DNA from: Eledone cirrhosa
Lineage: Eukaryota
Length of the DNA stretch: 64,000 bases
NCBI GenBank assembly: GCA_964016885.1
Contig: OZ024744.1
Location: 46,624,001 to 46,688,000 of the forward strand
Direction of reading: 5' to 3'
The first letter of the stretch is position 1; each line of letters opens with the position of its first letter. Positions 1,426 through 57,750 of the stretch are shown piece after piece. Below the pieces are notes generated by a model that saw nothing but the letters and a program-made list of their open reading frames with translations, was not told the DNA's origin and did not search any database. Position numbers and translations under genes: made by a program.

Positions 1426-4643
<3,218 letters not shown>

Positions 4644-4781
4644 TATATATATATGTATATATATATATGTATATATATATATGTATATATATATATGTAT
4701 ATATATATATGTATATATATATATGTATATATATATATGTATATATATATATGTATATATATATATATGTATATATATATG

Positions 4782-4878
<97 letters not shown>

Positions 4879-4911
4879 ATAGGTATATATATATATACGT
4901 ATATATATATG

Positions 4912-4945
<34 letters not shown>

Positions 4946-5029
4946 TATATACATATGTATATATGTATATATATATGTATATATATATATATATGTATAT
5001 ATATATGTATATATATATATATAAATATG

Positions 5030-5116
<87 letters not shown>

Positions 5117-5185
5117 GTATGTGTATATATATATATATGTATATATATATATGTGTATATATATATATGTGTATATATATATATG
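4644..5185. repeat. (TA)n-rich microsatellite
   Basis: About 540 bp TA/TG tract between two retroelements. Confidence 0.98.
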
Positions 5186-6420
5186 TAACCATCGATTACC
5201 TGTACTAGACACAGATCTCTGGTTAGATACCATTAATAACAAAAAACAAATCCTCCATTCCCATTATGCCAAACCCATGACTTCCAAATATCTGATCCAC
5301 CGAAACTCAGCTGTTTCAGACCATACCAAAATCAACATACTGATTGCGGATTTGGTACGGGTGATGAGAAACGTGTCCCGCATGTGCAACCCCGAAGAAC
5401 TAGAGAGACACATACAACACTTCATCCACCGTATGCAGTTCTCTGGTTACAATCAGAGAGATAAAATCAGAGTGTATAGAGGAGCCAGAACCAAATGGGA
5501 AAAAATGGTAAATAATGACACAAATGGAACCTGCCCCTTGTATAGGAGCAACTTTTGGAATATAATAGAAAGAACTAGGAGTATGGATAATAGAATAAAC
5601 TCATGGTATGAAAGCAATAAATACCAGAGTGTAATGTTCATCGATACAACCCCTAGAGGTGAATTAGCTTACAAATTTAGGAGGGCCCTAGATAAACATA
5701 AACTCAATATTAAGATAGTAGAAAGACCAGGTACCTCCATAAAAACACTTATTAGCAAGACATACCCTTTTCAAAGACCCCCTGTATAGATAAGAAATGT
5801 ATAACCTGTAAATTAAGCGCCCATATTAACTGTAAAACTAGAAATGTAGTATATAGCATAAGATGTACTGAAGGACAATGTAGAGACAAAAAAAATATAG
5901 TGTACATAGGTGAGACAGCTCGTAGTCTAGGGGAACGGATAAATGAACACTGGCGAGACCTTCAAGATAGTAAAGAATCATCTGTACTCTACCAACATGC
6001 TAAAATAGAACATAAGTGTAAATTAGAGAACATAGAAATAAAAATAGAATCTACACACAGAAAAGACGCAATGTTTAGACAAATCACAGAGGCAATAAAC
6101 ATAAAAGAATTACAACCAAAATTTAATAGAAAACATGAGTGGAACAGCAACATCACGTCTTACAATTAAGGACAAAATGAAATAACACGCACATAGAACA
6201 AACAACCAACCTGTAACATGTACATAAACAAATAAATAAACGATAAACACACACAGACACCTGGATGTGGCGCATGCGCAGACTGAGCACACAACACACA
6301 CACAGAAACAAAATGGCGTAGGACAGAACAAAGGAGAGGCACAAAAACAAAGAAAAGAATCCCCAGTCACTGAAGAGGTCACAGAATGTGTGACGAAAGA
6401 ACTTTGACAATATATAAACA
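5186..6420 (+). mobile_element. 5'-truncated Penelope-like element (RT thumb + GIY-YIG endonuclease + 3' UTR with HHR)
   Basis: LPVLDT...HYAKPM RT thumb, Cys linker, VVYSI...YIGETARSLGERINEH GIY-YIG domain. Frameshift near 5780. Clade not assigned. Confidence 0.85.
6366..6408 (+). ncRNA. Minimal type I hammerhead ribozyme motif
   Basis: GTCA CTGAAGA G GTCACA-gaatg-TGTGAC GAA AG-aa-CT T TGAC, located in the 3' UTR of the PLE. Confidence 0.7.
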
Positions 6421-13991: not shown

Positions 13992-14584
13992 AAACTAATT
14001 AGTTGGAGTGAAATTTTAGTAAGTAAGTCAATTTTCATAACTTTCTTATTTACGTCTTTCATATAATTGTTCTTCATTCCCCTGCATAGAACCACAAAGT
14101 TACTAAGACAAAACATATTTATCTGCTAGCATAGGTATGCATCTGTATACATTAGTCGGTAGATATATTAATTCTTTATAATTATCTCCAAATTATGTTG
14201 AGCAAAATTTGCCAAATTACTACTGTGACTGATAGTAGTAGCTAGGCTCTGTCTTAATAGCACCCCCACTCCAAGCTTGTTAACCTCAGTGTCACGTGAT
14301 TGATTCTTTTGAATTTGCCACTTGACCAAGAAGGCAGTGAATTTTTCAGTGCTTAGAATCTAGCCCCGCTCGATTTTTTCGCTTTTTTCCATCCACTGAA
14401 TTATTGTTATATAAGTTCCCAGTGTCCCCGCATTGCCTGGAAACTTAGCTGAGATTAGACTCCCTGATGACGTAAGGCTTCTCTATAGTTATTACGTAAC
14501 TATATTTATCCCCTTACAGAAACTAATTAGTTGGAGTGAAATTTTAGTAAGTAAGTCAATTTTCATAACTTTCTTATTTACGTC

Positions 14585-14592
<8 letters not shown>
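13992..14592 (+). mobile_element. ORF-less HHR-bearing element with terminal direct redundancy (unit about 528 nt), retrozyme/mini-PLE-like
   Basis: 13992-14065 is repeated at 14520-14593. Homologous over its length to 43736-44304. Confidence 0.75.
14459..14537 (+). ncRNA. Type I hammerhead motif with extended stem II
   Basis: ACTCC CTGATGA C GTAAGG..(TATAGTTA/TAACTATA)..CCTTAC A GAA AC-taatta-GT T GGAGT. Confidence 0.82.
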
Positions 14593-14636
<44 letters not shown>

Positions 14637-14653
14637 ATATATATGTATATATG

Positions 14654-14820
<167 letters not shown>

Positions 14821-14833
14821 GTATATATAGATG

Positions 14834-14864
<31 letters not shown>

Positions 14865-14873
14865 GTATATATA

Positions 14874-14945
<72 letters not shown>

Positions 14946-14951
<6 letters not shown>

Positions 14952-15180
14952 TGTTCCGTGCTGTTTGCTCTGATCAGAGCAAACAGCACGGACACTCTAT
15001 CTCAAAATTATTTTTGAGAAGCATTTAGAAATGCGCAACCGGTAAAAACTTATAAAACTTAAAACCACAACTTAATACTAAGCCATACAATCACTAATAC
15101 TCTTTTATTCCTAATTAAACCATTTTTCAACTGTGAACAATTTGTCAGCATTTTCTATTCCGTTTACCAATATATAATAA
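14946..15180 (+). repeat. Short repeat with 5' fold-back hairpin (14946-15000) and degenerate HHR-like motif (15011-15047); second copy at about 42308-42497
   Basis: 27-bp arms with no loop. Motif TTGAGAA GCATT-taga-AATGC GCA AC-cg-GT A. Confidence 0.6.
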
Positions 15181-15456: not shown

Positions 15457-15496
<40 letters not shown>

Positions 15497-15544
15497 CAGG
15501 AAAGAAGGTTTACATGGTTTGCTATACAAAAAAGTTTTTAATCA

Positions 15545-15657
15545 CATAGCTTACATTTGTTTCACTGAACTGGTATGTCTAGAGATCGCTATCCGCCTAA
15601 TTTTGCGTCACTCGATCGCCAATACAGAATTATAACCAGTCAGATCTTCGGAGCATG
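15545..15657 (-). ncRNA. Hammerhead motif, C4 variant with long stem II
   Basis: Mirror of 20171-20283. Confidence 0.7.
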
Positions 15658-16040
15658 CGAGAATGAAGAAAATACACAGGCAAGAAAATAAAAGAAAATA
15701 TGGAGTAGTTATGGCATTCAATTAGAACAATAAACAACAACAATTATTACAACAATGCTATCAATAAACTATTTAAGGAGACCCTGACATTACTTAGGTG
15801 GGGTGTATATAATGTATCTAATGTTACGGCGTGAAAACCAGCTGTCATAAGGCAAAAAGTATCGTAGTGTGTATCAATTTTAAATTATAAAGATAAGCTA
15901 GTTTTTACAGTCTTTCTCTTCATCTTCAACCGTATACATGAGTGGGACCACTGTCAAAGCTCAATAGTTGTAGAGTTAATACAGAGGTTAACGAATTAAT
16001 ATACGCATATATCTACGCACACACACACACACACACACAT

Positions 16041-16087
<47 letters not shown>

Positions 16088-16422
16088 TAAATACATATAC
16101 ACACATATGTGTACATAGACACATACATACACACTAATATACACTCGTACAAAAATATACATACATGCAAAGAGAAAAGCGTGCTAATTGTAATATGGCA
16201 AAAAGAAGGTAAAGTAACATTGTAGTAGTGAAATGAGAAAAACTAGGATCTAGGATCAAATGATTGCAGCAGCTGAGAAGGAGTAAGATTGTTGGTAGAT
16301 GAGGTATTTACAGACTATTGTGTGGTATAGACTTGTGAAGGAAATAGTATACTTAATGAATATATATTTTTTTTTGTGGGTAGTAGGTATCCTAATTTAA
16401 AGCTATGTTATGTTGGTTCGAT

Positions 16423-17853
16423 TCACGGAGGTTTGAATCTTATGAATTTAGTGGCTATTCTATGCCTGCAGAAGATAGATCTTTCTAACTTATTATTAAG
16501 TAGTCTTTTAACATTTCTAAGGATATACAATAGCTCAAGATCACACAGCCCGCAATAGGACATACCTGTACTATAGGTTTTAGCAGCCGACAACTTCGAC
16601 CAGTTGATAGTGTAGCTAGCGTTGCTGTCCTTCAATTCCCATATTTTTCTGGCGAGGGTGGTGGAACCCATAAGAGCTCGGTTTTTCATCGAGTGCCTGT
16701 GCACATACCATCTTTTCTTAAAAGAACCCGCGGTGGATCCTATGTAATTCCAAGTGGAGTTACCCGAGATGACAGTGCACATGTACACCAGACTCGAATC
16801 GAGACATCTATTCGCCAATGGGCACCTATCTGGGAGGTGACAGTTGCAGTTTGAGGCGCTATTATGTGCAGCTTTTACATTCCTATTTAGTACCCTGTTA
16901 TAAGTGGGTTGTGATATATGCCCAATGGGGTTTTGCTGCTGCGCGTTTGTATGCGCTTGTGGTTGTGATGTTGTGATGAGTTTGTGCTTATGTATAGGTG
17001 CAATTGATTTACTTGAGATATTTCTGCGGTTGATCTTGCGTATGTGTGATTCTATGTTAGCTGCTGTTGAAAAAGAGAGTTTTATAGTAGATCTATTGAG
17101 TAGTTTGTGATATCTATGCGAGATAGGGAAGTGTTTATCTATTAGTTTAAAGAATATAGAGGGCAGTCTAGTTTTTATAGAGGAGTTGAATATTGGGTTG
17201 AACCATAGGTATTTCCTTTGTCTGTTTCTTCTATTGTTTCTAGGGTTTACGTTATTAGTGTTTTGGCCGTTTACTCTAGGTGTTACATGTCTAACCCTAT
17301 GTCTAGTCAAGCTATTCTTATTATTATGTGAGCGGTTGGAGTAGAAATTACTAGGATTGTTTATGTTGTCCTTATTCACTATATACTGTAGTTTATCTTT
17401 ATGACCGGCCCTACTTAATGCTGCATTATAATAGTCAGCATGCTCGTTAAAGATTTCTAGGTTTGAGGATAGGCGGGATATTCGGAGGGATATACTACGT
17501 GCTATGGATTTAATTATGGATTTGGGGTGATTTGAGTTGTAACTAATGTAGGCAAGATTTTCATTATTTTTGTGGAAAGGTTCTATTAATCCAGTATTTA
17601 GATTTAGAGTTACATCTAGAAAATTTACCTTCTTATGGTTTAGTTCGTAGGTAATACTTAGGCCTAGTTTTTTGAAGAATATTCTAATATTTTTCCTTAG
17701 TCTTTCCATGCTCTGGTTGTTTAGGTTCCTAGCTATAAGTAACGTGTCGTCCCTATAAATTCCTCCTTGGAGGTTACTGAATTCCTTATGTAGGTTGTGT
17801 GCTAGGAATAGCCCCACGATATCTGTAATTTGCGCAGAATCATTTGAACCCAT
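16423..17853 (-). CDS. PLE RT (C-terminal half) + GIY-YIG endonuclease, 5'-truncated (left arm)
   Basis: 476-aa ORF: MGSNDSAQITDIVG, GGIYRDD, VNFLDV, CNCHLPDRCPL, LVY...YIGST. Identical to the right-arm ORF. Confidence 0.85.
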   Translation of the reverse strand: MGSNDSAQITDIVGLFLAHNLHKEFSNLQGGIYRDDTLLIARNLNNQSMERLRKNIRIFFKKLGLSITYELNHKKVNFLDVTLNLNTGLIEPFHKNNENLAYISYNSNHPKSIIKSIARSISLRISRLSSNLEIFNEHADYYNAALSRAGHKDKLQYIVNKDNINNPSNFYSNRSHNNKNSLTRHRVRHVTPRVNGQNTNNVNPRNNRRNRQRKYLWFNPIFNSSIKTRLPSIFFKLIDKHFPISHRYHKLLNRSTIKLSFSTAANIESHIRKINRRNISSKSIAPIHKHKLITTSQPQAHTNAQQQNPIGHISQPTYNRVLNRNVKAAHNSASNCNCHLPDRCPLANRCLDSSLVYMCTVISGNSTWNYIGSTAGSFKKRWYVHRHSMKNRALMGSTTLARKIWELKDSNASYTINWSKLSAAKTYSTGMSYCGLCDLELLYILRNVKRLLNNKLERSIFCRHRIATKFIRFKPP

Positions 17854-17989
17854 TGTAATATCGAAGCTATTTATTCTATCCTTTCTTACCCAGTAGTTAT
17901 TTTCAAATTTTACGGCTAGAAGGACTATCGTAAAATTTGAAAATAACTACTGGGTAAGAAAGGATAGAATAAATAGCTTCGATATTACA

Positions 17990-19420
17990 ATGGGTTCAAA
18001 TGATTCTGCGCAAATTACAGATATCGTGGGGCTATTCCTAGCACACAACCTACATAAGGAATTCAGTAACCTCCAAGGAGGAATTTATAGGGACGACACG
18101 TTACTTATAGCTAGGAACCTAAACAACCAGAGCATGGAAAGACTAAGGAAAAATATTAGAATATTCTTCAAAAAACTAGGCCTAAGTATTACCTACGAAC
18201 TAAACCATAAGAAGGTAAATTTTCTAGATGTAACTCTAAATCTAAATACTGGATTAATAGAACCTTTCCACAAAAATAATGAAAATCTTGCCTACATTAG
18301 TTACAACTCAAATCACCCCAAATCCATAATTAAATCCATAGCACGTAGTATATCCCTCCGAATATCCCGCCTATCCTCAAACCTAGAAATCTTTAACGAG
18401 CATGCTGACTATTATAATGCAGCATTAAGTAGGGCCGGTCATAAAGATAAACTACAGTATATAGTGAATAAGGACAACATAAACAATCCTAGTAATTTCT
18501 ACTCCAACCGCTCACATAATAATAAGAATAGCTTGACTAGACATAGGGTTAGACATGTAACACCTAGAGTAAACGGCCAAAACACTAATAACGTAAACCC
18601 TAGAAACAATAGAAGAAACAGACAAAGGAAATACCTATGGTTCAACCCAATATTCAACTCCTCTATAAAAACTAGACTGCCCTCTATATTCTTTAAACTA
18701 ATAGATAAACACTTCCCTATCTCGCATAGATATCACAAACTACTCAATAGATCTACTATAAAACTCTCTTTTTCAACAGCAGCTAACATAGAATCACACA
18801 TACGCAAGATCAACCGCAGAAATATCTCAAGTAAATCAATTGCACCTATACATAAGCACAAACTCATCACAACATCACAACCACAAGCGCATACAAACGC
18901 GCAGCAGCAAAACCCCATTGGGCATATATCACAACCCACTTATAACAGGGTACTAAATAGGAATGTAAAAGCTGCACATAATAGCGCCTCAAACTGCAAC
19001 TGTCACCTCCCAGATAGGTGCCCATTGGCGAATAGATGTCTCGATTCGAGTCTGGTGTACATGTGCACTGTCATCTCGGGTAACTCCACTTGGAATTACA
19101 TAGGATCCACCGCGGGTTCTTTTAAGAAAAGATGGTATGTGCACAGGCACTCGATGAAAAACCGAGCTCTTATGGGTTCCACCACCCTCGCCAGAAAAAT
19201 ATGGGAATTGAAGGACAGCAACGCTAGCTACACTATCAACTGGTCGAAGTTGTCGGCTGCTAAAACCTATAGTACAGGTATGTCCTATTGCGGGCTGTGT
19301 GATCTTGAGCTATTGTATATCCTTAGAAATGTTAAAAGACTACTTAATAATAAGTTAGAAAGATCTATCTTCTGCAGGCATAGAATAGCCACTAAATTCA
19401 TAAGATTCAAACCTCCGTGA
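17990..19420 (+). CDS. PLE RT (C-terminal half) + GIY-YIG endonuclease, 5'-truncated (right arm)
   Basis: Same 476-aa ORF. The frame is open upstream through the palindrome spacer (ARRTIVKFENNYWVRK). Confidence 0.85.
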   Translation: MGSNDSAQITDIVGLFLAHNLHKEFSNLQGGIYRDDTLLIARNLNNQSMERLRKNIRIFFKKLGLSITYELNHKKVNFLDVTLNLNTGLIEPFHKNNENLAYISYNSNHPKSIIKSIARSISLRISRLSSNLEIFNEHADYYNAALSRAGHKDKLQYIVNKDNINNPSNFYSNRSHNNKNSLTRHRVRHVTPRVNGQNTNNVNPRNNRRNRQRKYLWFNPIFNSSIKTRLPSIFFKLIDKHFPISHRYHKLLNRSTIKLSFSTAANIESHIRKINRRNISSKSIAPIHKHKLITTSQPQAHTNAQQQNPIGHISQPTYNRVLNRNVKAAHNSASNCNCHLPDRCPLANRCLDSSLVYMCTVISGNSTWNYIGSTAGSFKKRWYVHRHSMKNRALMGSTTLARKIWELKDSNASYTINWSKLSAAKTYSTGMSYCGLCDLELLYILRNVKRLLNNKLERSIFCRHRIATKFIRFKPP

Positions 19421-20170
19421 ATCGAACCAACATAACATAGCTTTAAATTAGGATACCTACTACCCACAAAAAAAATATATATTCATTAAGTATACTATTT
19501 CCTTCACAAGTCTATACCACACAATAGTCTGTAAATACCTCATCTACCAACAATCTTACTCCTTCTCAGCTGCTGCAATCATTTGATCCTAGATCCTAGT
19601 TTTTCTCATTTCACTACTACAATGTTACTTTACCTTCTTTTTGCCATATTACAATTAGCACGCTTTTCTCTTTGCATGTATGTATATTTTTGTACGAGTG
19701 TATATTAGTGTGTATGTATGTGTCTATGTACACATATGTGTGTATATGTATTTATATTTATATATATATATATATATATATATGTGTATGTGTGTGTGTG
19801 TGTGTGTGTGCGTAGATATATGCGTATATTAATTCGTTAACCTCTGTATTAACTCTACAACTATTGAGCTTTGACAGTGGTCCCACTCATGTATACGGTT
19901 GAAGATGAAGAGAAAGACTGTAAAAACTAGCTTATCTTTATAATTTAAAATTGATACACACTACGATACTTTTTGCCTTATGACAGCTGGTTTTCACGCC
20001 GTAACATTAGATACATTATATACACCCCACCTAAGTAATGTCAGGGTCTCCTTAAATAGTTTATTGATAGCATTGTTGTAATAATTGTTGTTGTTTATTG
20101 TTCTAATTGAATGCCATAACTACTCCATATTTTCTTTTATTTTCTTGCCTGTGTATTTTCTTCATTCTCG

Positions 20171-20283
20171 CATGCTCCGAAGATCTGACTGGTTATAATT
20201 CTGTATTGGCGATCGAGTGACGCAAAATTAGGCGGATAGCGATCTCTAGACATACCAGTTCAGTGAAACAAATGTAAGCTATG
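20171..20283 (+). ncRNA. Hammerhead motif, C4 variant with long stem II
   Basis: CATGCT CCGAAGA T CTGACTGGT..(about 58 nt)..ACCAGTTCAG T GAA AC-aaat-GT A AGCTATG, in the PLE 3' UTR. Confidence 0.7.
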
Positions 20284-20504
20284 TGATTAAAAACTTTTTT
20301 GTATAGCAAACCATGTAAACCTTCTTTCCTGATTTATTATTACTCCAAGTGTTTACAACATAGGAATTACAGCATACCCGCAGCATCACTATGAAAACGC
20401 CTTGTTGAGTCAAACCAAGCCAAGCGTTAATATCATCCACTACCTGGAATACCATAACTGGACTTCACCTAAGTGGACTGCATTTAACTATTATTTGTTA
20501 ATCC

Positions 20505-20555
<51 letters not shown>

Positions 20556-37269: not shown

Positions 37270-38482
37270 ATGGCACTGGAACAAGACAACACAACTTCAA
37301 ACTCCAATATAAATGAGGAAATCCTGAAAATCCTAAAAGAGATAAATGGAAAACTCACCATTCTGACAAAAAAAACAGGATATACCCCAAACCACCACAC
37401 CGACTGACAACCAAATTTATTTAAACGTTCAAAACGTATGCAACTCCATCGAAAAACTTATGAATACCAACACAGAACAGACGACATTGCTCCATATCAA
37501 AAACCAAATGGGACACCTCTGGAAAAAACATCTAAAATCCAGAAAATTCACTTTCTGGAATATGATAAAAAACCTCAACAAAGCTGGAATTTACCAAAAA
37601 TGGATTAACTCAACACCGATAGTTTTACCAGGTAAATTCCAAATAAAGCATATTACAAACGAACCTGAACCAGAAAGAAAACCCCGTGAACAAATGTCAC
37701 TCAACAGGATAAACATGGAAATAGAACTCCTAAAATTAAGGGCCACCTCCAACGAGCAAGAGTATAAGGATACTGATAAAAATATGGAGGACGAATGCAC
37801 TAAAAAGGCCGAGGGAACAACCCTACAAAATTTAATCAAATCGTGGAAACAGGACTGCGAGAATGCAGAAATTATTTCCCTTAAACGGTGGGAAAAATTC
37901 GAAAACTGGTTCCTCAAATATGAAGAAGACTTTAAAAGGACGCACCAAACAGGTAACCCCTTTATAAAACATTTGAACATAACAAGAACTACAACAGACA
38001 CATTTACACCACGAAACCCAACACACACTAACCACAGGCACATCCCCCACCAACACAAACCAAATACGGCCAACTACACCAAAAGAAACACACCCAACCA
38101 CCACAACACAGGTTTCCGTAGAAATGCCCCCTACATAAACCAACGACGAAATAACATAGATCCAACTCACAACACACACACCACATTCCTCAGAAGAAAT
38201 CCACCCAGACCACTTGAAATCACAACAGAACTTACCCACAACCACACCAGACATCACCCTCAATCCAACAAAAGACAACCCCCCCCCCCAACCTCAACAC
38301 TCTGTACCACAGAAATAACGCACCCAGACCACATGAACCAACAACAGAACCCTTGCTCATCAACAACCACAACACATACCACCCCCACCATTACATTCAC
38401 CCTCATGAAACAACAAGCTACAGACCCACACGCAACAGACCAACAAAATATAATCACACACAAAACTACATTCCTTTTTTAG
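37270..38482 (+). pseudogene. Upstream (ORF1-like, helical/low-complexity) reading frame of the Neptune-like PLE
   Basis: ATG at 37270 (MALEQDN...), frameshift, then the 340-aa ORF 37460-38482. No recognisable domain. Confidence 0.55.
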
Positions 38483-40794
38483 GGAAAAGCCTGAAATACC
38501 AGGATACTCGATGCCCCCCCCCCCCCCCTCAGGAGAAACCAAAAATAATCAACCTCTCAAAGACACCTCTAACCAACACACAAATCAACATTTTAAGTAA
38601 GGGCCTGAAATTTACACCTACACCACGTAAACCAAACTTCCCCGAATTGAAGGATGACATCATGGAATACTGCCGAAAGCTGCGACTAACGGAATTCTTC
38701 CACAACGACACCAACACTGAAGACGAATCACTGGTTAGAAATAAAAGCAATTTCTGCCCACAAAAGGGAAGAAATAAAGCACTGGACACGTACTGCGAAC
38801 ACATCACCAACTTTCCCTATGAAAAAATTACAAATAAACACACGAAATCAAACCTATCTACACACGAATGGGAAGAATTATTCACACTTAGAAACAACCC
38901 TGAGATAACTATCAAAGAAGCCGATAAAGGCAGTACTGTTGTCATTATGAATACGGACTACTATAGGACCCTCGCACTTAACATTTTAGAAAACAACACA
39001 TACTATGAAAAAACAGAAAACTACAAACACACCAAAACAATGGGGAACCTTTTGACCTTACTGAATAAATACCGCAACAGCTTAACCACAAAAGAGTTTA
39101 ACTATATAAGCCACTTCAAATGCAATACAAGCTCTTTTTACGGCTTACCGAAACTCCACAAATGTAAACCCATAAACGATGCATGTGACACCTCAACCAA
39201 CAATTACATTGAACTAACACCACCAGAAGACCTAAAACTCAGGCCAATTATAGCAGGCCCTACATGTGAAACCCACAGACTTAGCAACTTTCTGGACATC
39301 CTACTGAAACCCTTTCTACAACATATTTAAGAGCTACATACGAGATGACCTTGACATGCTGAAACACCTCCCTAAAACAGTAAGTGCAAATACAATTCTT
39401 GTCTCCTTTGACGTAATAAACCTCTACACAAACATACCCCACAACTATGGAATAACAGCAGTCCAATACTGGCTTAACACACACCCATCAGAAATACCGA
39501 TACGCATCAACAAAGATTTTATCACTGACGGACTCCGCTTTATCCTACAAAATAACTACTTCACATTCAATGGTTCAACATACAGACAAGTATCAGGTAC
39601 GGCAATGGGCACGAAAGTAGCACCCACATATGCCAACCTAGTCATGGGATTCTATGAACAACAAATATACATCAGTCCCTTCTCTTATTTGGAGACTCTT
39701 TCCACACACACCTCAAAGCCAATTGGAAAAGATATCTAGACGACTGCTTTATCCTATGGCAAGAAGACATGAACTCACTTACTATGTTTAAAAACATGAT
39801 AAACAACATAGATAATAACATACAATTCACAATGGAATCCAATCCTAAGGAATTAGCCTTCTTGGATATTCTCATCTCTGTAATAGACGGGAAATTAGAT
39901 ACAGATATATTCTATAAACCCACAGATTCCAAGCAATACCTCTTTTTCACATCAAGTCACCCAAAACATGCAAAACTTAACATTCCTTACGATTTGGCCA
40001 AACGTATATGTACCATAGTATCAGATCCACCTAAACGGGAGCAAAGACTAAAGGAACTAAAAGACACCCTTATCTTAAGAGCCTTTCCACTTGAAATAAT
40101 CAACAATGGAATTGACAGGGCAAAACACCTAAATCCCCATCAACTTAACAATCCAAAACAAAAAACCACACTCAACACCCTGCCATATGTATCCACTTTC
40201 AACCCCAGAAATACCGAAATGTTTGATCACCTACACAAAAACCTCCCCATCCTACTTAAAGATGTAAAAATGAAGTCTATTCTTGAAACACACAAGATCC
40301 TTAAAAGTAAAAGACAACCCAAATCACTAAAACGCATTCTCACTGGACCAAATATACCCAAACCAATCCTCAACCCTACAGTTACCAAATGTGGTAGAAC
40401 AAACTGTGGAACGTGCCTCTACCTCACTGAAGGACAAAAATTTACATTTAAAGATGGCCAAACATTTACAGTAAAAAACAATTTCACCTGCAACTCGGAG
40501 AACTTGATTTACGCAATAACTTGCGGTGGGTGCAAACACAACTACATAGGACAGACGGGCGCCTCATTACGCAAAAGAATGACCATCCACCGCCAACAAA
40601 TCCGGGACGCTAACACAAGAAAAATCCCCTTGAGCAGCCATATTGCGAACTGCGCAGGAATGACACTACCCAACTTTAAAATCTTCCCCTTCTACAAGTG
40701 CTCAGATTCGTTCACACAGCAACAAAGAATAAACAAAGAAAATCTATTCCTTAACAAATTTAAACCAAAACTAAACGGGTTATCACCCCAATAG
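38353..40794 (+). pseudogene. Neptune-like PLE RT + GIY-YIG endonuclease, frameshifted
   Basis: LSKGLKFTP, KEADKG, FYGLPKLHK, RPIIAG, GTAMGTKVAPTYANL, RYLDD, KCGRTNCGTC, LIYAITC..YIGQT. Two frameshifts (about 39330 and 39680). Confidence 0.92.
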
Positions 40795-41234
40795 AATTGT
40801 CATAAAATATAAACACACATACGCACGGAGTGACAGATATATGTGTTTGTATGTGTGCATGTATATAATTATCACTACTATTAAAGACCAGAGACCAATT
40901 CTGTAGAATCAGGTTTATTCGTTGACAGACCATGCCTTTGTGTGACCAACACATCCATGTTAAACCCTGCACGTGCACACACATATATCTCTATATATAT
41001 GCGCACACAGAATTCACCACTGTCGGTTGCGGGGCCCAATCTACATGAAGAACTCAATGTGATCAGAATGACTTGTATTTTAATTTCACTGTCCTAACTT
41101 CTTATATTATGGAAAAAATTTATGTGTATGTATGTATATATATATATTTGGAGGCCATTTTTCTGTGTGTGGGTGTATGTATGTGTATATGTGTGTCTGT
41201 GTGTGTGTATGTGTGTGCATGTGGATGTATGTAT

Positions 41235-41279
<45 letters not shown>

Positions 41280-41415
41280 GTGTGTGTATGTGTATATATG
41301 TGTGTGTGTGTGTGTTTGTATGTGTGTATGTATATATATGTGTGTGTGTGTATGTATGTGTGGGTGGGTGTATATATATGTGTATGTATATGTGTGTATA
41401 TATGTGTATGTACAC

Positions 41416-41461
<46 letters not shown>

Positions 41462-41976
41462 GTGTATCTGGATGTATGTGTATGTATATATATGTGTGTG
41501 TGTGTATATATATATGTGTGTGTATGTGCATATATGTGTGTGTGTATGTATATGTATGTGTGTGTGTGTATGTATGTGTGTATATGTATATATATATATA
41601 TATATATATGTGTGTATGTATATGTATATGTATGTATGTGTGGATGAAGGTATGTGTGTATATATAGGTGTAAGTGCACTAAATCCCTTTCTATCAATCT
41701 CCCCTCTCCTACCGACCACAGGGAGATATATGTATGTATATTGCTTCCACCCCCTCACTGACCAGCAGCTGGCCATCTGGCCATTGCTAAATCTGACCTT
41801 TATAAAATAACCCACACCCCCAAATAACTTCTCATTTACTACCAGAAAGGCACACAGCAGTCAACTAGCTGCTACCAAGATAAAAACTACTATGAAATCC
41901 CACAATGAATTTTATACTTGAATTTTCAAATCTCAAATTTTAACTCTTCTTATTATTAATTTTTCATAATATTAAT

Positions 41977-43735: not shown

Positions 43736-44304
43736 TAAGTAAGTTAATTTTATAATTTTCTTATTTTACGTCTCTCATATTATTGTTCTGCAACCCCATG
43801 CATTGAACCACATTGTTAATAAGACAAAACCTATATATTTGCTAGCATTGATATGCATCTGTGTGTATATAAATGTTACTAGATATAAATTCCTTATAAT
43901 TATCTCCAATTCATTTGTCGAGCAATATTTGGCCATGACTGCTACTATGGTAGTAAGCTGGCCGCTGTCTTAATAACCACTCGCTTTCCACTGATTGACC
44001 TCGATGTCACGTGATTGATTCTTTTTGAATTTGCCACAGACGTAGAGGCAGTGATTTTCTTAATGGCTTGGAATCCAGTCCACGCTTCGCTATTTCCATT
44101 CCACTGAATTATTTTTTTAATAAGTTTCCAGTGTCCTCGCTATGACTGGAGACCTATACGGAAAAAGACTTTCCTGATGACGGAATGATTTTCCATATGT
44201 TTCTTCGGAAAATATATTTACTCCATTCCAGAAACTAATTAGTTGGAAGTGATTTTTTAGTAAGTAAGTTAATTTTATAATTTTCTTATTTTACGTCTCT
44301 CATA
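43736..44304 (+). mobile_element. ORF-less HHR-bearing element with terminal direct redundancy (unit about 525 nt)
   Basis: 43736-43780 is repeated at 44261-44305. Diverged homolog of 13992-14592 with the same 3' end. Confidence 0.75.
44168..44250 (+). ncRNA. Type I hammerhead motif with extended stem II
   Basis: ACTTTC CTGATGA C GGAATG (ATTTTCC/GGAAAAT) CATTCC A GAA AC-taatta-GT T GGAAGT. Confidence 0.82.
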
Positions 44305-44323
44305 TATATATATATAAGTACAT

Positions 44324-45515
44324 ATCATCATCATCATCGTTTAACGTCCATTTTCCACGCTAGCATGGGTCTGGACGGGAATTGTCCCACTTGAGGCAAG
44401 ATTGGTTGTCTTGCTCAGGACTATCTGGCGGGTTTTCTACGGCTGGATGCCCTTCCTAACACCAACCACGTTTACAGTGTGGACTGGGAGGTTTTTACTG
44501 TGTTACCTACACGGCCACATTACAGCGTGGACTGTGTGTTTTTTTGTCGTGACACCTACACGACCTCATTTGTTTCGAACTGGATGTTGTGGTACCACAT
44601 AATTTCACATTTAAGGGAGTGGTGTGGATGGGGTGGGGGTAGTGGGACGGGGTTGTATTTTGTTAGAGGTGCCTACTGACTGTAGGTTTCGCTTTGTACT
44701 TAGGCAAGGCGGGTCTTCTGTATAACTGTGTAGCGCAAAAGATCTCGGTTCAGTGACATTGTCTTGGAGAGGTGTAAGTGTGTGAGGTCGGAATTTATCA
44801 AGTCGTCCCAGGTTTTTCTGGGTCTGCCTACTCCGTGGCTACCGTCTATTTTTATCGCCCTGCACTTTTTTATACAGCTGTCATCTTTCATGCGCATCAC
44901 GTGACCGTACCAACGTAGTCTTCTCTCGAGTAAACAACATCTGATCCCTCTTATTCCTAATTTCTACCTTAGTTCGTTTATGCTTTACCGTTCACGTATA
45001 TTACTATTACACATCCACCGGAGCATGCAAGCTTCGTTTCTCACGAGTCTGCTTATATCATCTGCACACAATGCCCAGATCTCACTGCCATGTAACATTG
45101 CTGTTCGTATGCAGGCATCATACAGCCTGCCTTTCATTTTTAGAGAGAACCCTTTAGCGGCCAATAGTGGTATAAGCTCTCTGAACTTTTTCCATCCCGT
45201 TCTGACTCTAGCTACTGTACTTTCAGAGCACCCTCCCCCACTGCTGATTTTGTCACCCAGGTAACGGAAGCTGTCCACTATTTCTATAGAACCATCTGTG
45301 CAATGGAATGAGCTAGTATTCGGTGGGCATTTGCTGCTACTTATTGCACCAGAGCACCGGCCACATATAAAATCTATATTCTTAGTTAGCTTACCTGTGA
45401 TCCCACTACATCTTTTATGCACCCATACTTTGCATTTGGGACATAAAATGGAGTTTCTGCCTACTCCTTTCCTACACACTGAACATGGCCATTTCCCAGA
45501 TGGGACCGGTGCCTT
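44324..45515 (-). mobile_element. 5'-truncated copy of the PHD-containing RTE LINE
   Basis: Homologous to 54145-55335, including the 3' UTR and (ATG)n tail. Confidence 0.92.
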
Positions 45516-49761: not shown

Positions 49762-50856
49762 ATGTCTGAATATAGCTGTGAGATTTGTAGGAAAACTTTC
49801 CCTTCAAAACTGAAACTATCCTCACATGGGAAAATACACACTGGAGAAAAACCCTTCCATTGTGAAATATGTGGGAAGTCTTTTGTCTTGAACAGTGATT
49901 TAAAAAGGCATATAAGAACACACACTGGAGAAAAACCTTATTCATGTGAAATATGTGGGAAATCCTTTTCTTGTAATTCTAATCTTGTAGTTCACAAAAG
50001 AATACACACAGGTGAAAATCCTTCTTCATGTGAAATATGTGGGAAATCTTTTTCTCATAGTTCTCATCTTGTACGCCACAAAAGAATACACACAGGAGAA
50101 ACACCTTTCCATTGTGAAATATGTGGGAAATCTTTTTCTGATAGTTCTCATCTTCTTTATCACAAAAGAACACACAGAGGAGAAAAACCTCATTCATGTG
50201 AAATATGTGGGAAATCTTTTTCTCAAGGTTCTAGTCTTGTAGATCACAAAAGAGTACACACTGGAGAAAAACCCTTCCATTGTGAAATATGTGGGAAATC
50301 TTTTTCTCAAGGTTCTAGTCTTGTAAATCACAAAAGAATACACACAGGAGAAAAACCCTTCTATTGTGAAATATGTGGGAAATCTTTTTCTAATAGTTCT
50401 CATCTTGAACATCACAAAAGAACACACACAGGAGAAAAACCTTATTCATGTGAAATATGTGGGAAATCCTTTTCTAGTAATTCTACACTTGTAGTTCACA
50501 AAAGAATACACACAGGAGAAAAACCCTTCCATTGTGAAATATGTGGGAAATCCTTTTCTTGTAATTCTAATCTTGTAGTTCACAAAAGAATACACACAGG
50601 AGAAAAACCCTTCCATTGTGAAATATGTGGGAAATCCTTTTCTTGTAATTCTTATCTTGTAGTTCACAAAAGAATACACACAGGAGAAAAACCCTTCCAT
50701 TGTGAAATATGTGGGAAATCCTTTTCTTGTAATTCTAATCTTGTAGTTCACAAAAGAATACACACAGGAGAAAATCCTTATTCATGTGAAATATGTGGGA
50801 AATCTTTCACTCAGAATTCTTCACTGGTTCTTCACAAACGTAGTCAACACTTGTGA
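49762..50856 (+). CDS. C2H2 (Kruppel-type) zinc-finger protein, 13 tandem fingers, no effector domain
   Basis: Intact 364-aa ORF of CEICGKSF..L..H...H repeats with TGEKP linkers. Confidence 0.93.
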   Translation: MSEYSCEICRKTFPSKLKLSSHGKIHTGEKPFHCEICGKSFVLNSDLKRHIRTHTGEKPYSCEICGKSFSCNSNLVVHKRIHTGENPSSCEICGKSFSHSSHLVRHKRIHTGETPFHCEICGKSFSDSSHLLYHKRTHRGEKPHSCEICGKSFSQGSSLVDHKRVHTGEKPFHCEICGKSFSQGSSLVNHKRIHTGEKPFYCEICGKSFSNSSHLEHHKRTHTGEKPYSCEICGKSFSSNSTLVVHKRIHTGEKPFHCEICGKSFSCNSNLVVHKRIHTGEKPFHCEICGKSFSCNSYLVVHKRIHTGEKPFHCEICGKSFSCNSNLVVHKRIHTGENPYSCEICGKSFTQNSSLVLHKRSQHL

Positions 50857-54144: not shown

Positions 54145-57100
54145 TCATCATCATCATCATCAACGTTTAACGTCCGTGTTCCACGCTTGCATGGGTTTGG
54201 ACGGGGGTAGTCCCACTTGAGGCAAGAGTGATTGTCTTGCTCGCATAGGACTGTCTGGCAGGTTTTCTACAGTTGGATGCCCTTCCTAACACCAACCACA
54301 TTTACAGTGTGGGTCTGGGAGGTTTTTACCGTGTTGCCTACACGGCCACATTACAGCGTGGACTGTGTGTTTTTTTGTCGTGACACCTACACGATCTCAT
54401 TTGTTTCGTCCTCGATGGCGCGGCACCAACATAACTTTACATAGAACGGGGTGGTGTGGTGGGACGGGGTGTATTTTGTTAGAGATGCCTACTGGCTGGA
54501 GTAGGTTTTACTATATATTTAGGTAAGGCGGGTCTTCTCTGTTACTGAGTACCGCCAAAGGTCTCAGTCCAGTGACATTGTCTTGGAGAGGTGTAAGTGT
54601 GTGATGTCGGAGTTTATCAGCTCGTCCCAGGTTTTTCTAGGTCTGCCTATTCCGTGACTACCGTCTATCTTTATTGCCCTGCACTTTGTTATACAGCTAT
54701 CGACTTTCATGCGCATCACGTGTCCATACCAACGTAGCCTTCTCTCGAGTAAACAACATCTGATCCCTCTTATCTCTAATTTTTTCCTTAGTTCGTTTAT
54801 GCTTTGCCGTTCACGTATATTACTGTTACACATCCAGCGGAGCATGCAAGCTTCGTTCCTCTCTAGTCTGCGTATATCCTCTGCACACAATGCCCAGGTC
54901 TCACTGCCATGCAGCATTGCTGTTCGTATGCAGGCATCGTACAACCTGCCTTTCATTTTTAGTGAGAACCCTTTAGCAGCTAATAGTGGTATAAGCTCTC
55001 TGAACTTTTTCCAACCAGTTCTGACTCTAGCTACAGTACTTTCAGAGCACCCTCCCCCACTGCTGGTTTTATCGCCCAGGTAACGGAAGCTGTCCACTAT
55101 TTCTATAGAACCCTCTGCGCAATTGAAAGAGCTAGTATTTTGTGGGCACTTGCTGCTACTTATTGCACCAGAGCACCGGCCACATGTAAAATCTATGTTC
55201 TTAGTTAGCTTACCTGTGATCCCACTACATCTTTTATGCACCCATACTTTGCATTTAGGACATAAAATGGAGTTTCTACCTACGCCTTTCCTACACACCG
55301 AGCACGACCATTTCCCAGAAGGGACCGCCGCCTTGTTTTCTTTCCTACAAACTAGTACTTTGGTCTTAGCCAGGTTAATTTTAAGTCCTTTTGACTCTAG
55401 GCCGTGCTTCCATGTTTGGAATTTCTTCTCTAGCTCGGCCATTGATTCCGCTATGAGTGTCAGGTCGTCTGCGTATAGGAGTTCCCATGGGCAGCCTGTC
55501 TTGAACTCCTCTGTTATAGCCTGAAGGGCAATAATAAATAGTAGTGGGCTGAGAACAGAGCCCTGATGGACGCCAACTTTTACGCTAAACTCTTCACTAT
55601 ATTCGTTGTTAATTCTAACCTTGCTGACTGTTTCTTTATACATGGCTTGTATAGCCCTCACAAGCCATTCGTCAACGCCTAGTTTTCTAAGAGCCCACCA
55701 GATAATGGAGCGGGGGACTCTGTCGAAGGCTTTCTCCAAGTCGACAAAAGCTAAGTAGAGGGGTTTACCTTTAGCTAGGTACTTCTCCTGTAGTTGTCGT
55801 ACTATGAAAAGAGCGTCTGTGGTACTTTTGCCTGACACAAACCCGAACTGCATTTCATCTAGGTCAATTCTCTCTCTGATTAGTTGCGCTATTACTTTTT
55901 CCGTGACCTTCATGACCTGGTCGATTAATTTAATGCCTCTATAGTTACTCCTATCTAGGGCGTCTCCTTTACCCTTATAACAGTTAACGATGATGCTGCT
56001 ATGCCAGTCCTTCGGAACAACCCCATTCTGTACGACTTGGTTAACTATGCGGGTGACCATGGTGTGTCCCACCGTGCCAGATGCCTTCAGCATCTCAGCA
56101 ACTATTTCCGAAGGCCCAGCCGCCTTACCCGTCTTCATATCCTTGATTGCCTTACTTATTATACTCCCCTCGACTAACACTGCTGGTCCCTCTATTGGGT
56201 CGATATGGGGGAGACTGTCTTTCTCCCATTTATTCTCCTCATTTAGTAGCCTTTCATAGTGACACTTCCAAGCTACCTTCTTATCAGCGTCGGTGATGGC
56301 AAGTGTGCCATCGTCGTTTAGTACACACTTCTCCCCGACAATATCACGGTTTTCCTTGACGCATTGCCTAGCAATCCTGAACACCTCACGTTTTTGGTCA
56401 TCGCGTTGTAGAACATGCTTGAACTTTCTTTCCTCAGCTTCCCTTCTTGCTAAGTACCCTTGTCTCCTAGCTTCCCTCCTGGCCACTTGATAGTCCTCTC
56501 TACTTCCCCCATCCCGCCATACTTTCCAAGCCTGCTTTTTGGCCTTAATTGACCCCTCCACCTTACTGTTCCACCACCATGTTACTCTCCTCCTGCCTAC
56601 AGGCCTGCTCCAGCCACAGACTTCGTCTGTCGCCAATAGCAGGTTTGCTTTCAGAAATTCCCACTCTCCCTCTATATTGTCCGACTCTAAATGTTCTTCC
56701 TTACTGTCGAAAGCATCAAGTAATATGCTTTGAAATTTATTCCTGACTGTGGGGTCCTTTAGCTTCCATATTTTTCTCCTGAGGATAGTCCTCTTCTGCT
56801 GTCGAGTACGTCTCGTCCTGACTATGAGGTCGCTAATTATCAGTCTATGTTGGGAGGTGCATTCTTCATGGGGGAGGGATTTAGTGTTTACAACAGACAC
56901 TCTGTCACGTCTTCTGGTAAGGATATAATCTACCTGGCTTGTGTGTTCCCCGGATCTATAGGTGATCAGGTGATTGTCACGTTTTTTGAAGTTAGTGTTA
57001 CAGATAGTTAGGTTATTTGCATCACAGAATTCCAGGATTCTGGAGCCTTCCTCATTTCTAGTACCAAACCCATAGCCTCCATGGATTTCATCGTAGCCGT

Positions 57101-57750
57101 CACAATGTTGTGCAACGTGACCATTTAGGTCGCCTGCGATAATTATATAGTCACTGTCGGATATTTGGGAGGTAGTTAGCATCAGTGTCTCATAGAATCT
57201 GTCTTTTATAGTGCCGGATTGGGGTGCGTACGCAGATATTACTGTCACCGTAGTTCTATTGAGGACAAGTCGTATTTTAATTATTCTGTCGTTCACTCTA
57301 TTTACGTCTATTATCTTATCTGCCCACTTTTCTGCTACCATGATTCCTACTCCACCCAGCCCATCGTCGTTTCCCACCCAGAAAAGCTTATAACATCGTT
57401 TTTTACCCTCAATGAACCTAGCAGACCCACCCCTCCAGCTGGTCTCTTGAATACAACAAACATCGACCTCCTTACGTTCAAGCATTTCTACAACCTCGTT
57501 AGCGCGACCCTTTAGGGTGCCTACATTTATGGTACCAACTCTGAAGTTTTGGATTGCGTTTGGGGGTTGGGGGCGGTGGGGGGCGGGGGGCGATGGGGTT
57601 ATGTTAGCCGTCCGCGGTCGAAACAATGAGGAGTGCTCGCATTCTCGTCCAAGAGGTGAATTTGTCTTTATCTTTGGCATTGTCGCTGAGCGTCCAGATT
57701 TTTCTCTCTCTCACCTCCACTCTCCAGGATTCCGCAGTCCATCCATCCAT
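54145..57750 (-). mobile_element. Nearly intact RTE-clade LINE
   Basis: Long ORF, about 375-nt 3' UTR and (ATG)n tail. Confidence 0.95.
54564..57680 (-). CDS. RTE ORF: APE endonuclease + reverse transcriptase + PHD-like zinc finger
   Basis: 1038 aa: GTINVGTL, CIQET, SAYAPQ, GDLNGH, FVDLEKAFD, GVHQGSVLSP, LYADD, C4HC3 finger, LRWYGH. A TGA removes about 15 C-terminal residues relative to the 44700 copy. Confidence 0.92.
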   Translation of the reverse strand: MPKIKTNSPLGRECEHSSLFRPRTANITPSPPAPHRPQPPNAIQNFRVGTINVGTLKGRANEVVEMLERKEVDVCCIQETSWRGGSARFIEGKKRCYKLFWVGNDDGLGGVGIMVAEKWADKIIDVNRVNDRIIKIRLVLNRTTVTVISAYAPQSGTIKDRFYETLMLTTSQISDSDYIIIAGDLNGHVAQHCDGYDEIHGGYGFGTRNEEGSRILEFCDANNLTICNTNFKKRDNHLITYRSGEHTSQVDYILTRRRDRVSVVNTKSLPHEECTSQHRLIISDLIVRTRRTRQQKRTILRRKIWKLKDPTVRNKFQSILLDAFDSKEEHLESDNIEGEWEFLKANLLLATDEVCGWSRPVGRRRVTWWWNSKVEGSIKAKKQAWKVWRDGGSREDYQVARREARRQGYLARREAEERKFKHVLQRDDQKREVFRIARQCVKENRDIVGEKCVLNDDGTLAITDADKKVAWKCHYERLLNEENKWEKDSLPHIDPIEGPAVLVEGSIISKAIKDMKTGKAAGPSEIVAEMLKASGTVGHTMVTRIVNQVVQNGVVPKDWHSSIIVNCYKGKGDALDRSNYRGIKLIDQVMKVTEKVIAQLIRERIDLDEMQFGFVSGKSTTDALFIVRQLQEKYLAKGKPLYLAFVDLEKAFDRVPRSIIWWALRKLGVDEWLVRAIQAMYKETVSKVRINNEYSEEFSVKVGVHQGSVLSPLLFIIALQAITEEFKTGCPWELLYADDLTLIAESMAELEKKFQTWKHGLESKGLKINLAKTKVLVCRKENKAAVPSGKWSCSVCRKGVGRNSILCPKCKVWVHKRCSGITGKLTKNIDFTCGRCSGAISSSKCPQNTSSFNCAEGSIEIVDSFRYLGDKTSSGGGCSESTVARVRTGWKKFRELIPLLAAKGFSLKMKGRLYDACIRTAMLHGSETWALCAEDIRRLERNEACMLRWMCNSNIRERQSINELRKKLEIRGIRCCLLERRLRWYGHVMRMKVDSCITKCRAIKIDGSHGIGRPRKTWDELINSDITHLHLSKTMSLD

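Follow-up and report, generated by a model that had tools for sequence, protein, structure and literature searches.

Animal non-LTR retrozymes have already been described, and a Penelope-like origin is proposed for them in the available sections of two papers (PMC7229834; 10.64898/2026.07.22.740005). The second of these, whose scope is vertebrates only, gives consensus lengths of 51-972 bp, presents retrozymes as proposed non-autonomous derivatives of Penelope-like elements, and states in the sections available that the mechanism by which animal retrozymes return into DNA is still to be elucidated (10.64898/2026.07.22.740005). Penelope-like elements themselves are reported, in the available part of one paper, to form partial tandems, to carry an inverted 5'-truncated copy and a one-sided tail of 30-40 bp, and to show a bias for (TA)n (PMC8557442).

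We consider it probable that two repeat copies, A and B, found in the window (the whole stretch of DNA analysed, 64,000 nt) represent a non-coding, 528-nt, hammerhead-bearing family of animal non-LTR retrozymes, likely inserted in (TA)n by a Penelope-like RT-endonuclease. The 528-nt family is a new family within a known class. The sequence-only reading of this DNA had spoken of a candidate new retrozyme family, which holds for the family but not for the kind, since animal retrozymes are already described in the available sections of PMC7229834 and 10.64898/2026.07.22.740005. No family of the 528-nt unit was named in the literature searched, including the available part of the repeat-annotation paper PMC13282606.

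The comparison with described animal non-LTR retrozymes is close in several respects (Cervera and de la Pena 2020; Li, Clavereau and Pollet 2026; both as far as available). The family has in common with them a non-coding, low-GC unit in head-to-tail order with one type I hammerhead each, thousands of copies, a unit length within 51-972 bp, and abundant Penelope-like elements alongside. Unlike the invertebrate circles reported in the available sections, which measure 170-400 nt, the unit is 528 nt long. Set against the same descriptions, the family also differs by an insert of about 35 nt in helix II with a covarying hairpin, a C.A base mismatch and a miss by Rfam, and by occurring mostly in (TA)n as short arms (0.1-2.3 units) instead of long arrays, with an RNA stage that is predicted. 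Similarity to EN+ Penelope-like insertions (Craig et al. 2021, PMC8557442, available sections) extends to the partial tandem of pseudo-LTR type, the inverted 5'-truncated copy, the tail at one end and the (TA)n bias. In contrast to those insertions, the repeat is without an RT/EN ORF, its tail is 115 nt (unit positions 62-176) instead of 30-40 bp (PMC8557442), and the unit shares no sequence with any sampled Penelope-like 3' end. Non-autonomous Chlamys elements such as MRC1 of Chlamydomonas are likewise Penelope-like relatives with pseudo-LTRs and multicopy head-to-tail insertions (PMC8557442); according to the available text they share 3' ends with autonomous families and are without canonical hammerheads, whereas here the motif is present and no 3' end is shared. 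Plant LTR retrozymes are also non-autonomous retroelements, and their hammerheads release a unit that is then circularised, but in the sections available these are type III hammerheads located in LTRs, together with a PBS and a PPT, and the enzymes are of Ty3/Gypsy type (PMC4918200).

Copies A and B are ordinary transposon copies, not genes (Table 1). They were alignable along their entire length, with 83% mean column identity in the alignment and 76% by BLAST, and their units have GC contents of 0.36 (A) and 0.35 (B). The longest stop-to-stop frame was 76 codons in either unit when read as a circle in six frames. Minus-strand ATG frames of 51 and 54 aa, the longest in A and B respectively, were rejected as conserved coding because their start positions in the unit differ between the two copies. 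Both copies end in an exact terminal redundancy: 13992-14065 equals 14520-14593 in copy A (74 nt, 100%, spacing 528), and 43736-43780 equals 44261-44305 in copy B (45 nt, 100%, spacing 525). About 350 bp of (TA)n follow the 3' end of copy A and about 6 repeats that of copy B, and no target-site duplication was readable at copy A. The sequence-only reading had described a retrozyme-type hammerhead repeat of fixed period, with two diverged homologs lacking an ORF, periods of 528 and 525 nt, redundancies of 74 and 45 nt, 3' ends abutting (TA)n and a retained E-box-like motif, and these descriptions agree with the whole-length alignment, the short frames, the exact repeats at these spacings, the hand-modelled motif described below, and the placement of the E-box-like sequence within a 31-nt block that differs between A and B by one inserted base. 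Treated as RNA, the unit at 14005-14532 folded at -121.6 kcal/mol (z = -4.68 against 100 shuffles).

Table 1. Features of the two repeat copies and their surroundings in the window.
Feature	Position	Strand	Description	Basis
Copy A	13992-14593	+	Solo arm, 1.14 units: unit positions 516-528, then 1-528, then 1-61	74-nt direct repeat and BLAST of the unit
Copy B	43736-44305	+	Solo arm of another subfamily: unit positions 16-528, then 1-61; period 525; short (TA)n next to it	
Full 528-nt unit	14005-14532	+	Interval between two predicted cleavage sites; GC 0.36; without ORF	
Remnant of preceding hammerhead, 13 nt	13992-14004	+	Helix III and GUU site only; without catalytic core; CUGAUGA and helix II missing upstream	
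Complete type I hammerhead-like motif, copy A	14449-14547	+	Predicted cleavage after GUU, 14532|14533	Descriptor match
Complete hammerhead-like motif, copy B	44159-44259 (outer limits approximate)	+	Predicted cleavage 44244|44245	Descriptor match 44174-44244 and alignment
Unit position 61 site (..UUUCAUAUA)	14058-14065	+	Main 3'-end site and predicted priming site; copy A itself ends at the second instance of this site, 14586-14593	
Unit position 176 site (..UUCUUUAUA)	14173-14180	+	Second fixed 3'-end site; internal and unused in copy A	
Conserved 31-mer with GTCACGTGA, CACGTG core	14291-14321	+	Common to A and B save one inserted base	
(TA)n microsatellite, predicted target	14594-14946	.	Adjoins the 3' end of copy A	

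Hammerhead numbering and the hammerhead consensus were applied to the motif. In copy A, helix I pairs CUGAGAUU..ACUCC with GGAGU..AAUUUUAG and, after a 2x2 internal loop, continues with 8 further pairs in a manual reading. The core is CUGAUGA. Inside helix II (GUAAGG/CCUUAC) lie an internal loop and, distally, an 8-bp hairpin. GAAA stands after helix II, followed by helix III (ACU-AAUU-AGU) and the predicted cut after GUU. Copy B has GGAAUG/CAUUCC as helix II, in which two pairs are altered on both sides relative to copy A, and the predicted cleavage site is GUU^GGA in both copies. Helix III contains the palindrome CUAAUUAG, which may let the motif act as a double hammerhead. A generic type I descriptor, allowing a long helix II and one mismatch at the helix II base, gave exactly 2 matches on both strands of the 64-kb window (14464-14532 and 44174-44244) and 0 in 50 simulated windows, with the descriptor and the structure both derived from these same sequences and the descriptor written after seeing them. 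Of a preceding hammerhead, 13 nt remain at the 5' edge of copy A and nothing in copy B; each copy therefore has one complete ribozyme. This is also the number in the sequence-only reading, which placed the joint at GUU^GGA; the hand model and the two descriptor matches concur, and Rfam had no match. With one complete hammerhead each, neither window copy would be able to release a unit-length RNA, and A and B are dead-end daughters, not sources.

We found no hammerhead family in Rfam, nor any other credible one, at gathering scores over the whole window or at E up to 10 at both loci, and the Rfam microRNA matches that were returned lay on (TA)n and were discarded as low-complexity noise. RNAalifold gave 0 consensus pairs on the alignment of 85 distinct junction-spanning copies, and pairs were therefore counted on the hand-named structure. 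Standard pairs made up 90.2% of cells in these copies, compared to 33-53% when the partners were shifted along. Both sides had changed in 12 of 30 pairs, with a covariation score reached by 0 of 500 shuffles; the cells of this statistic are copies, not events. The clearest pair was 57-106 in helix II (UA, AU and GC in 56, 26 and 1 copies, respectively), and two pairs of the distal hairpin alternated between UA and CG (58/22 and 55/26). This covariation of helix II and the distal hairpin between subfamilies points to a fold under selection. Every copy has a C.A mismatch at the helix II base (positions 10.1-11.1), the GUU triplet and a helix III of just 3 bp, on account of which the activity of the motif may be weak. 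A U.U mismatch at the helix II base is reported for one axolotl retrozyme hammerhead in the available part of PMC7229834. Since a hammerhead with a long structured helix II was missed by the Rfam models, families like the 528-nt one are probably under-counted.

A search with the 601-nt query returned 3324 candidate places in the 3.0-Gb genome, and a 31-mer of the unit had 1465 exact genome matches, compared to 0 for the same pattern read backwards as a control. Two samples of loci were drawn. The first consisted of the 30 best full-length matches (L001-L030), in which the 601-nt query was fully covered and which are biased to arms of more than 1.1 units. The second took the 31-mer matches by position, up to the 30th place; it is unbiased for structure and represents 22 distinct places. 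The de-duplicated set comprised 88 arms from 60 loci and the window, in 55 insertions. A peak of conservation at unit positions 281-320 is a product of picking loci by that 31-mer and is not evidence.

Arm lengths in the position-ordered sample ranged from 0.10 to 2.27 units, with 19 of 40 arms longer than one unit. Arms longer than a unit with varied 5' entry are common, as expected from copying "slightly more than once around" a template in the sequence-only reading, but with this spread of lengths the phrase does not describe a rule. Two complete motifs were observed in 7 of 40 arms of the position-ordered sample and in 19 of 46 of the biased one. A total of 49 arms longer than one unit close from position 528 to position 1, and successive turns inside an arm were 97.45% alike (49 arms, 10648 columns). 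The 528-nt family is large and fairly young, with turns within an arm about 97.5% alike. At the junction GUU|GG no copy-specific indel was observed in 85 junction-spanning copies, the sole length variant being one additional G, present in 8 rows that represent 5 places.

The 3' ends of the arms are fixed. Among 88 arms, 46 end at unit position 61 and 34 at position 176, with 8 ending elsewhere. At least 5 TA within 20 nt past the 3' end were observed in 77 of the 88 arms (45 of 46 at position 61, 32 of 34 at position 176 and 0 of 8 elsewhere). Within the solo arms, (TA)n was also found directly upstream in 9 of 22, which places the element within the microsatellite. The 5' ends were scattered over the whole unit. 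Separately, 5' ends from many loci seemed to cluster at unit positions 480-502 (about 12 of about 55 arms) and at 15-16. The 480-502 cluster falls in a hairpin rich in TATA, which makes microhomology to the (TA)n target possible at the 5' junction.

Most insertions consist of two inverted arms, an arrangement invisible from the two solo window copies alone. Head-to-head inverted pairs with their 3' ends outward accounted for 33 of the 55 insertions, and no tail-to-tail pairs were observed among the 55. The pairs are strongly heterotypic, with 61+176 in 29 of 33, and 61+61 or 176+176 in 0 of 33. Nine inverted close neighbours were present among the first 100 listed places of the 31-mer, all in minus-then-plus order and 0 in the opposite order. 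Where the two arms of a pair meet, they overlap or leave a gap (range -13 to +47 nt). Identity between the arms of one pair was 97.6%, compared to 93.1% to arms of like age from other loci, and was higher within the pair in 27 of 27 pairs, although gene conversion between adjacent inverted arms could also raise this likeness. The two arms of a pair were copied from one template or from nearly identical ones.

One array of an older subfamily holds 15.7 units (L104, G000:C1:94665927-94674330) and has an inverted arm at its 5' end. Units 6 and 9, 7 and 10, and 8 and 14 of this array are up to 99.8% alike compared to a mean of 94.3%, forming a three-unit higher-order pattern, and the array therefore grew partly at the DNA level, after insertion. 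Amplification at the DNA level does occur, then, and it speaks for reading the repeat as a satellite, or as a Helitron-like repeat that replicates as a rolling circle at the DNA level, with recombination or DNA transposition as the means of spread and no RNA stage. We regard this explanation of the family as extremely improbable, given that its matches are dispersed (about 1465 in the genome, with 71 loci among the first 100 listed places of the 31-mer) and that its copies combine fixed 3' ends and varied 5' ends with head-to-head arms whose 3' ends point outward, and have no defined 5' termini.

The footprints observed in the retrozyme-like insertions are those of target-primed copying, with two fixed UAUA sites, one template, an intact junction, up to 2.3 turns and both (TA)n strands as primers. 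Penelope-like elements were examined for the same pattern in the window, which carries two of them (15491-20505 and 37460-40794). The first consists of head-to-head arms at 15491-17914 and 17929-20505 with 14 nt between them, and its central 1547 nt are 100% complementary. It has two ORFs of 476 aa each (16423-17853 on the minus strand and 17990-19420 on the plus strand) that are 100% identical to each other and 24-36% identical to other sampled Penelope-like ORFs. Neither 476-aa ORF had a match in Pfam; both contain what we take to be an RT motif and a motif resembling GIY-YIG. At 15491 the left arm runs out on (TA)n, and the right arm extends 168 nt more, to (TA)n at about 20506. This Penelope-like element is 5'-truncated and its head-to-head pair very young, and it shares the two-site insertion pattern with the 528-nt repeat. 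Because its insertion features match the Penelope-like pattern, which is also seen in this window pair, the repeat is best read as non-autonomous and moved by Penelope-type enzymes. The involvement of Penelope-like enzymes had been named in the sequence-only reading as background on animal retrozymes, and the insertion pattern (partial tandem, inverted copy, one-sided tail and microsatellite) fits it. A readable footprint of two start sites, heterotypic inverted arms and an intact junction makes the proposed Penelope-like link yield testable predictions.

Fixed 3' ends with variable 5' truncation and inverted arms also resemble the products of L1 twin priming, and intact LINEs are present, including a 1038-aa ORF with endonuclease, RT and PHD finger in the window (54564-57680, minus strand). 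The repeat might accordingly be a SINE-like element moved by a LINE with a microsatellite-type 3' end, its inverted arms arising by LINE twin priming. This is very improbable: ARAGORN found no tRNA in either locus, so there is no tRNA-like head, and none of the flanking LINE fragments is joined to the unit. Hallmarks of Penelope-like elements are copies that exceed one unit, two fixed 3' sites in heterotypic use and a one-sided tail (PMC8557442, available sections), and these are shown by the window pair.

The genome contains 10595 GIY-YIG candidates with open frames of up to 1096 aa. By BLAST, no sequence shared with the unit was observed in 43 Penelope-like loci (30 best GIY-YIG and 13 long-frame) or in the 3' regions of the two window elements; this search scored 150 of the 10595 candidates and fetched 43, and an autonomous partner may therefore still exist. 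The unit was continuous with an RT or EN frame in 0 of 62 sampled loci, in agreement with the sequence-only reading, which described both copies as without an ORF and named copies normally attached to an RT ORF as a finding against its proposal. A copy near an ORF at L099 was rejected as a joined element, being a separate insertion in a neighbouring microsatellite. At the protein level, no likeness of the unit was found to 7 Penelope-like ORFs from the fetched loci or to two pieces of the 37460-40794 element.

These results bear on whether the repeat is merely the pseudo-LTR of an autonomous Penelope-like element, the sampled copies being its 5'-truncated remains. Canonical Penelope-like pseudo-LTRs do carry hammerheads, and their insertions are mostly 5'-truncated, in the available sections of PMC8557442 and 10.64898/2026.07.22.740005. 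The reading is nevertheless improbable, as arms longer than a unit close from 528 to 1 and not into an ORF (in the 49 arms as in the 15.7-unit array), and the sampled loci lack both a continuous frame and a protein-level likeness, as given above. The three flanking Penelope-like fragments encountered (at L003, L023 and L029) were rejected as parts of the unit, with (TA)n lying between.

One Penelope-like family (L094, L095, L098 and L107-L136) has 3' regions that are 99% identical between copies and 1457 candidate places. It carries a minimal hammerhead-like motif (CUGAAGA..GAAA) about 430 nt past the ORF and has alternative 3' ends beside (TA)n. This family is probably active and a candidate driver.

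For the retrozyme-like family, we infer the following course before and after the copying itself. A source copy with two complete hammerheads would be transcribed and its RNA cleaved by the ribozyme at GUU^GGA, after which the 528-nt monomer would be circularised by a host ligase. A Penelope-type nickase would then open (TA)n, and the freed TA end would anneal to UAUA at position 61 and prime cDNA synthesis round the template. The nick on the other strand would prime at the next UAUA, at position 176, which lies 115 nt downstream on the same RNA, and template switching at short overlaps would link the 5' ends of the two cDNAs. Three sequencing runs of one study (short contigs, of unknown kind) gave a high summed depth on the unit and contained no ends and no informative joints.

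The same element and the same Penelope-type insertion could also operate with no circle at all, if the template were an uncleaved, longer-than-unit linear transcript of a tandem source and the motif were weak, inactive or used for trimming transcripts. We hold this to be possible, if doubtful. The intact junction in all copies is equally expected from an uncleaved multimer, source copies with at least two units exist, and the motif is off consensus and missed by Rfam; autonomous Penelope-like elements, moreover, make the same partial tandems with 3-kb units (PMC8557442, available sections). A multimer, however, would offer many position-61 sites and 61+61 pairs would be expected, with 0 of 33 observed, although priming at the nearest downstream site could also explain this. 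The covariation of helix II and the distal hairpin between subfamilies, with the selection on the fold to which it points, also argues against a transcript that stays uncleaved.

The lack of homotypic pairs fits a template that offers each of the two sites once, as a monomeric circle would, and a nearest-downstream-site rule on a multimer fits too. Tentatively, the strict 61+176 pairing from one template could be the footprint of a single monomeric RNA circle that was read simultaneously by both nicked strands of a (TA)n target, starting at two fixed internal sites. If true, this would be the first genomic evidence in animal retrozymes that parts rolling-circle reverse transcription from the copying of a multimer, and would account for the one-sided 'tail' that Penelope-like elements have in general.

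Several further observations concern the arms and the window. Short arms ending at position 176 appeared to stop near position 61, with 5' ends at 20-71 in 8 of 32. Directly after the (TA)n of copy A, at 14949-15000, lies an almost perfect palindrome whose arms measure about 23 nt (AGAGTGTTCCGTGCTGTTTGCTC..). The second Penelope-like element of the window (37460-40794, plus strand) is in three frame pieces with GIY-YIG in the last (Pfam E = 9e-06); it is followed by a long (TG)n/(TA)n tract at about 41100-41680, and its tail is unrelated to the 528-nt unit. LINE-related fragments were observed at 1630-5192 and 44748-45515, both on the minus strand, one of them just downstream of copy B and with 92% protein identity. 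The window also contains, at 49762-50856 on the plus strand, a 364-aa ORF of C2H2 zinc fingers (Pfam zf-H2C2_2, E = 5e-107).
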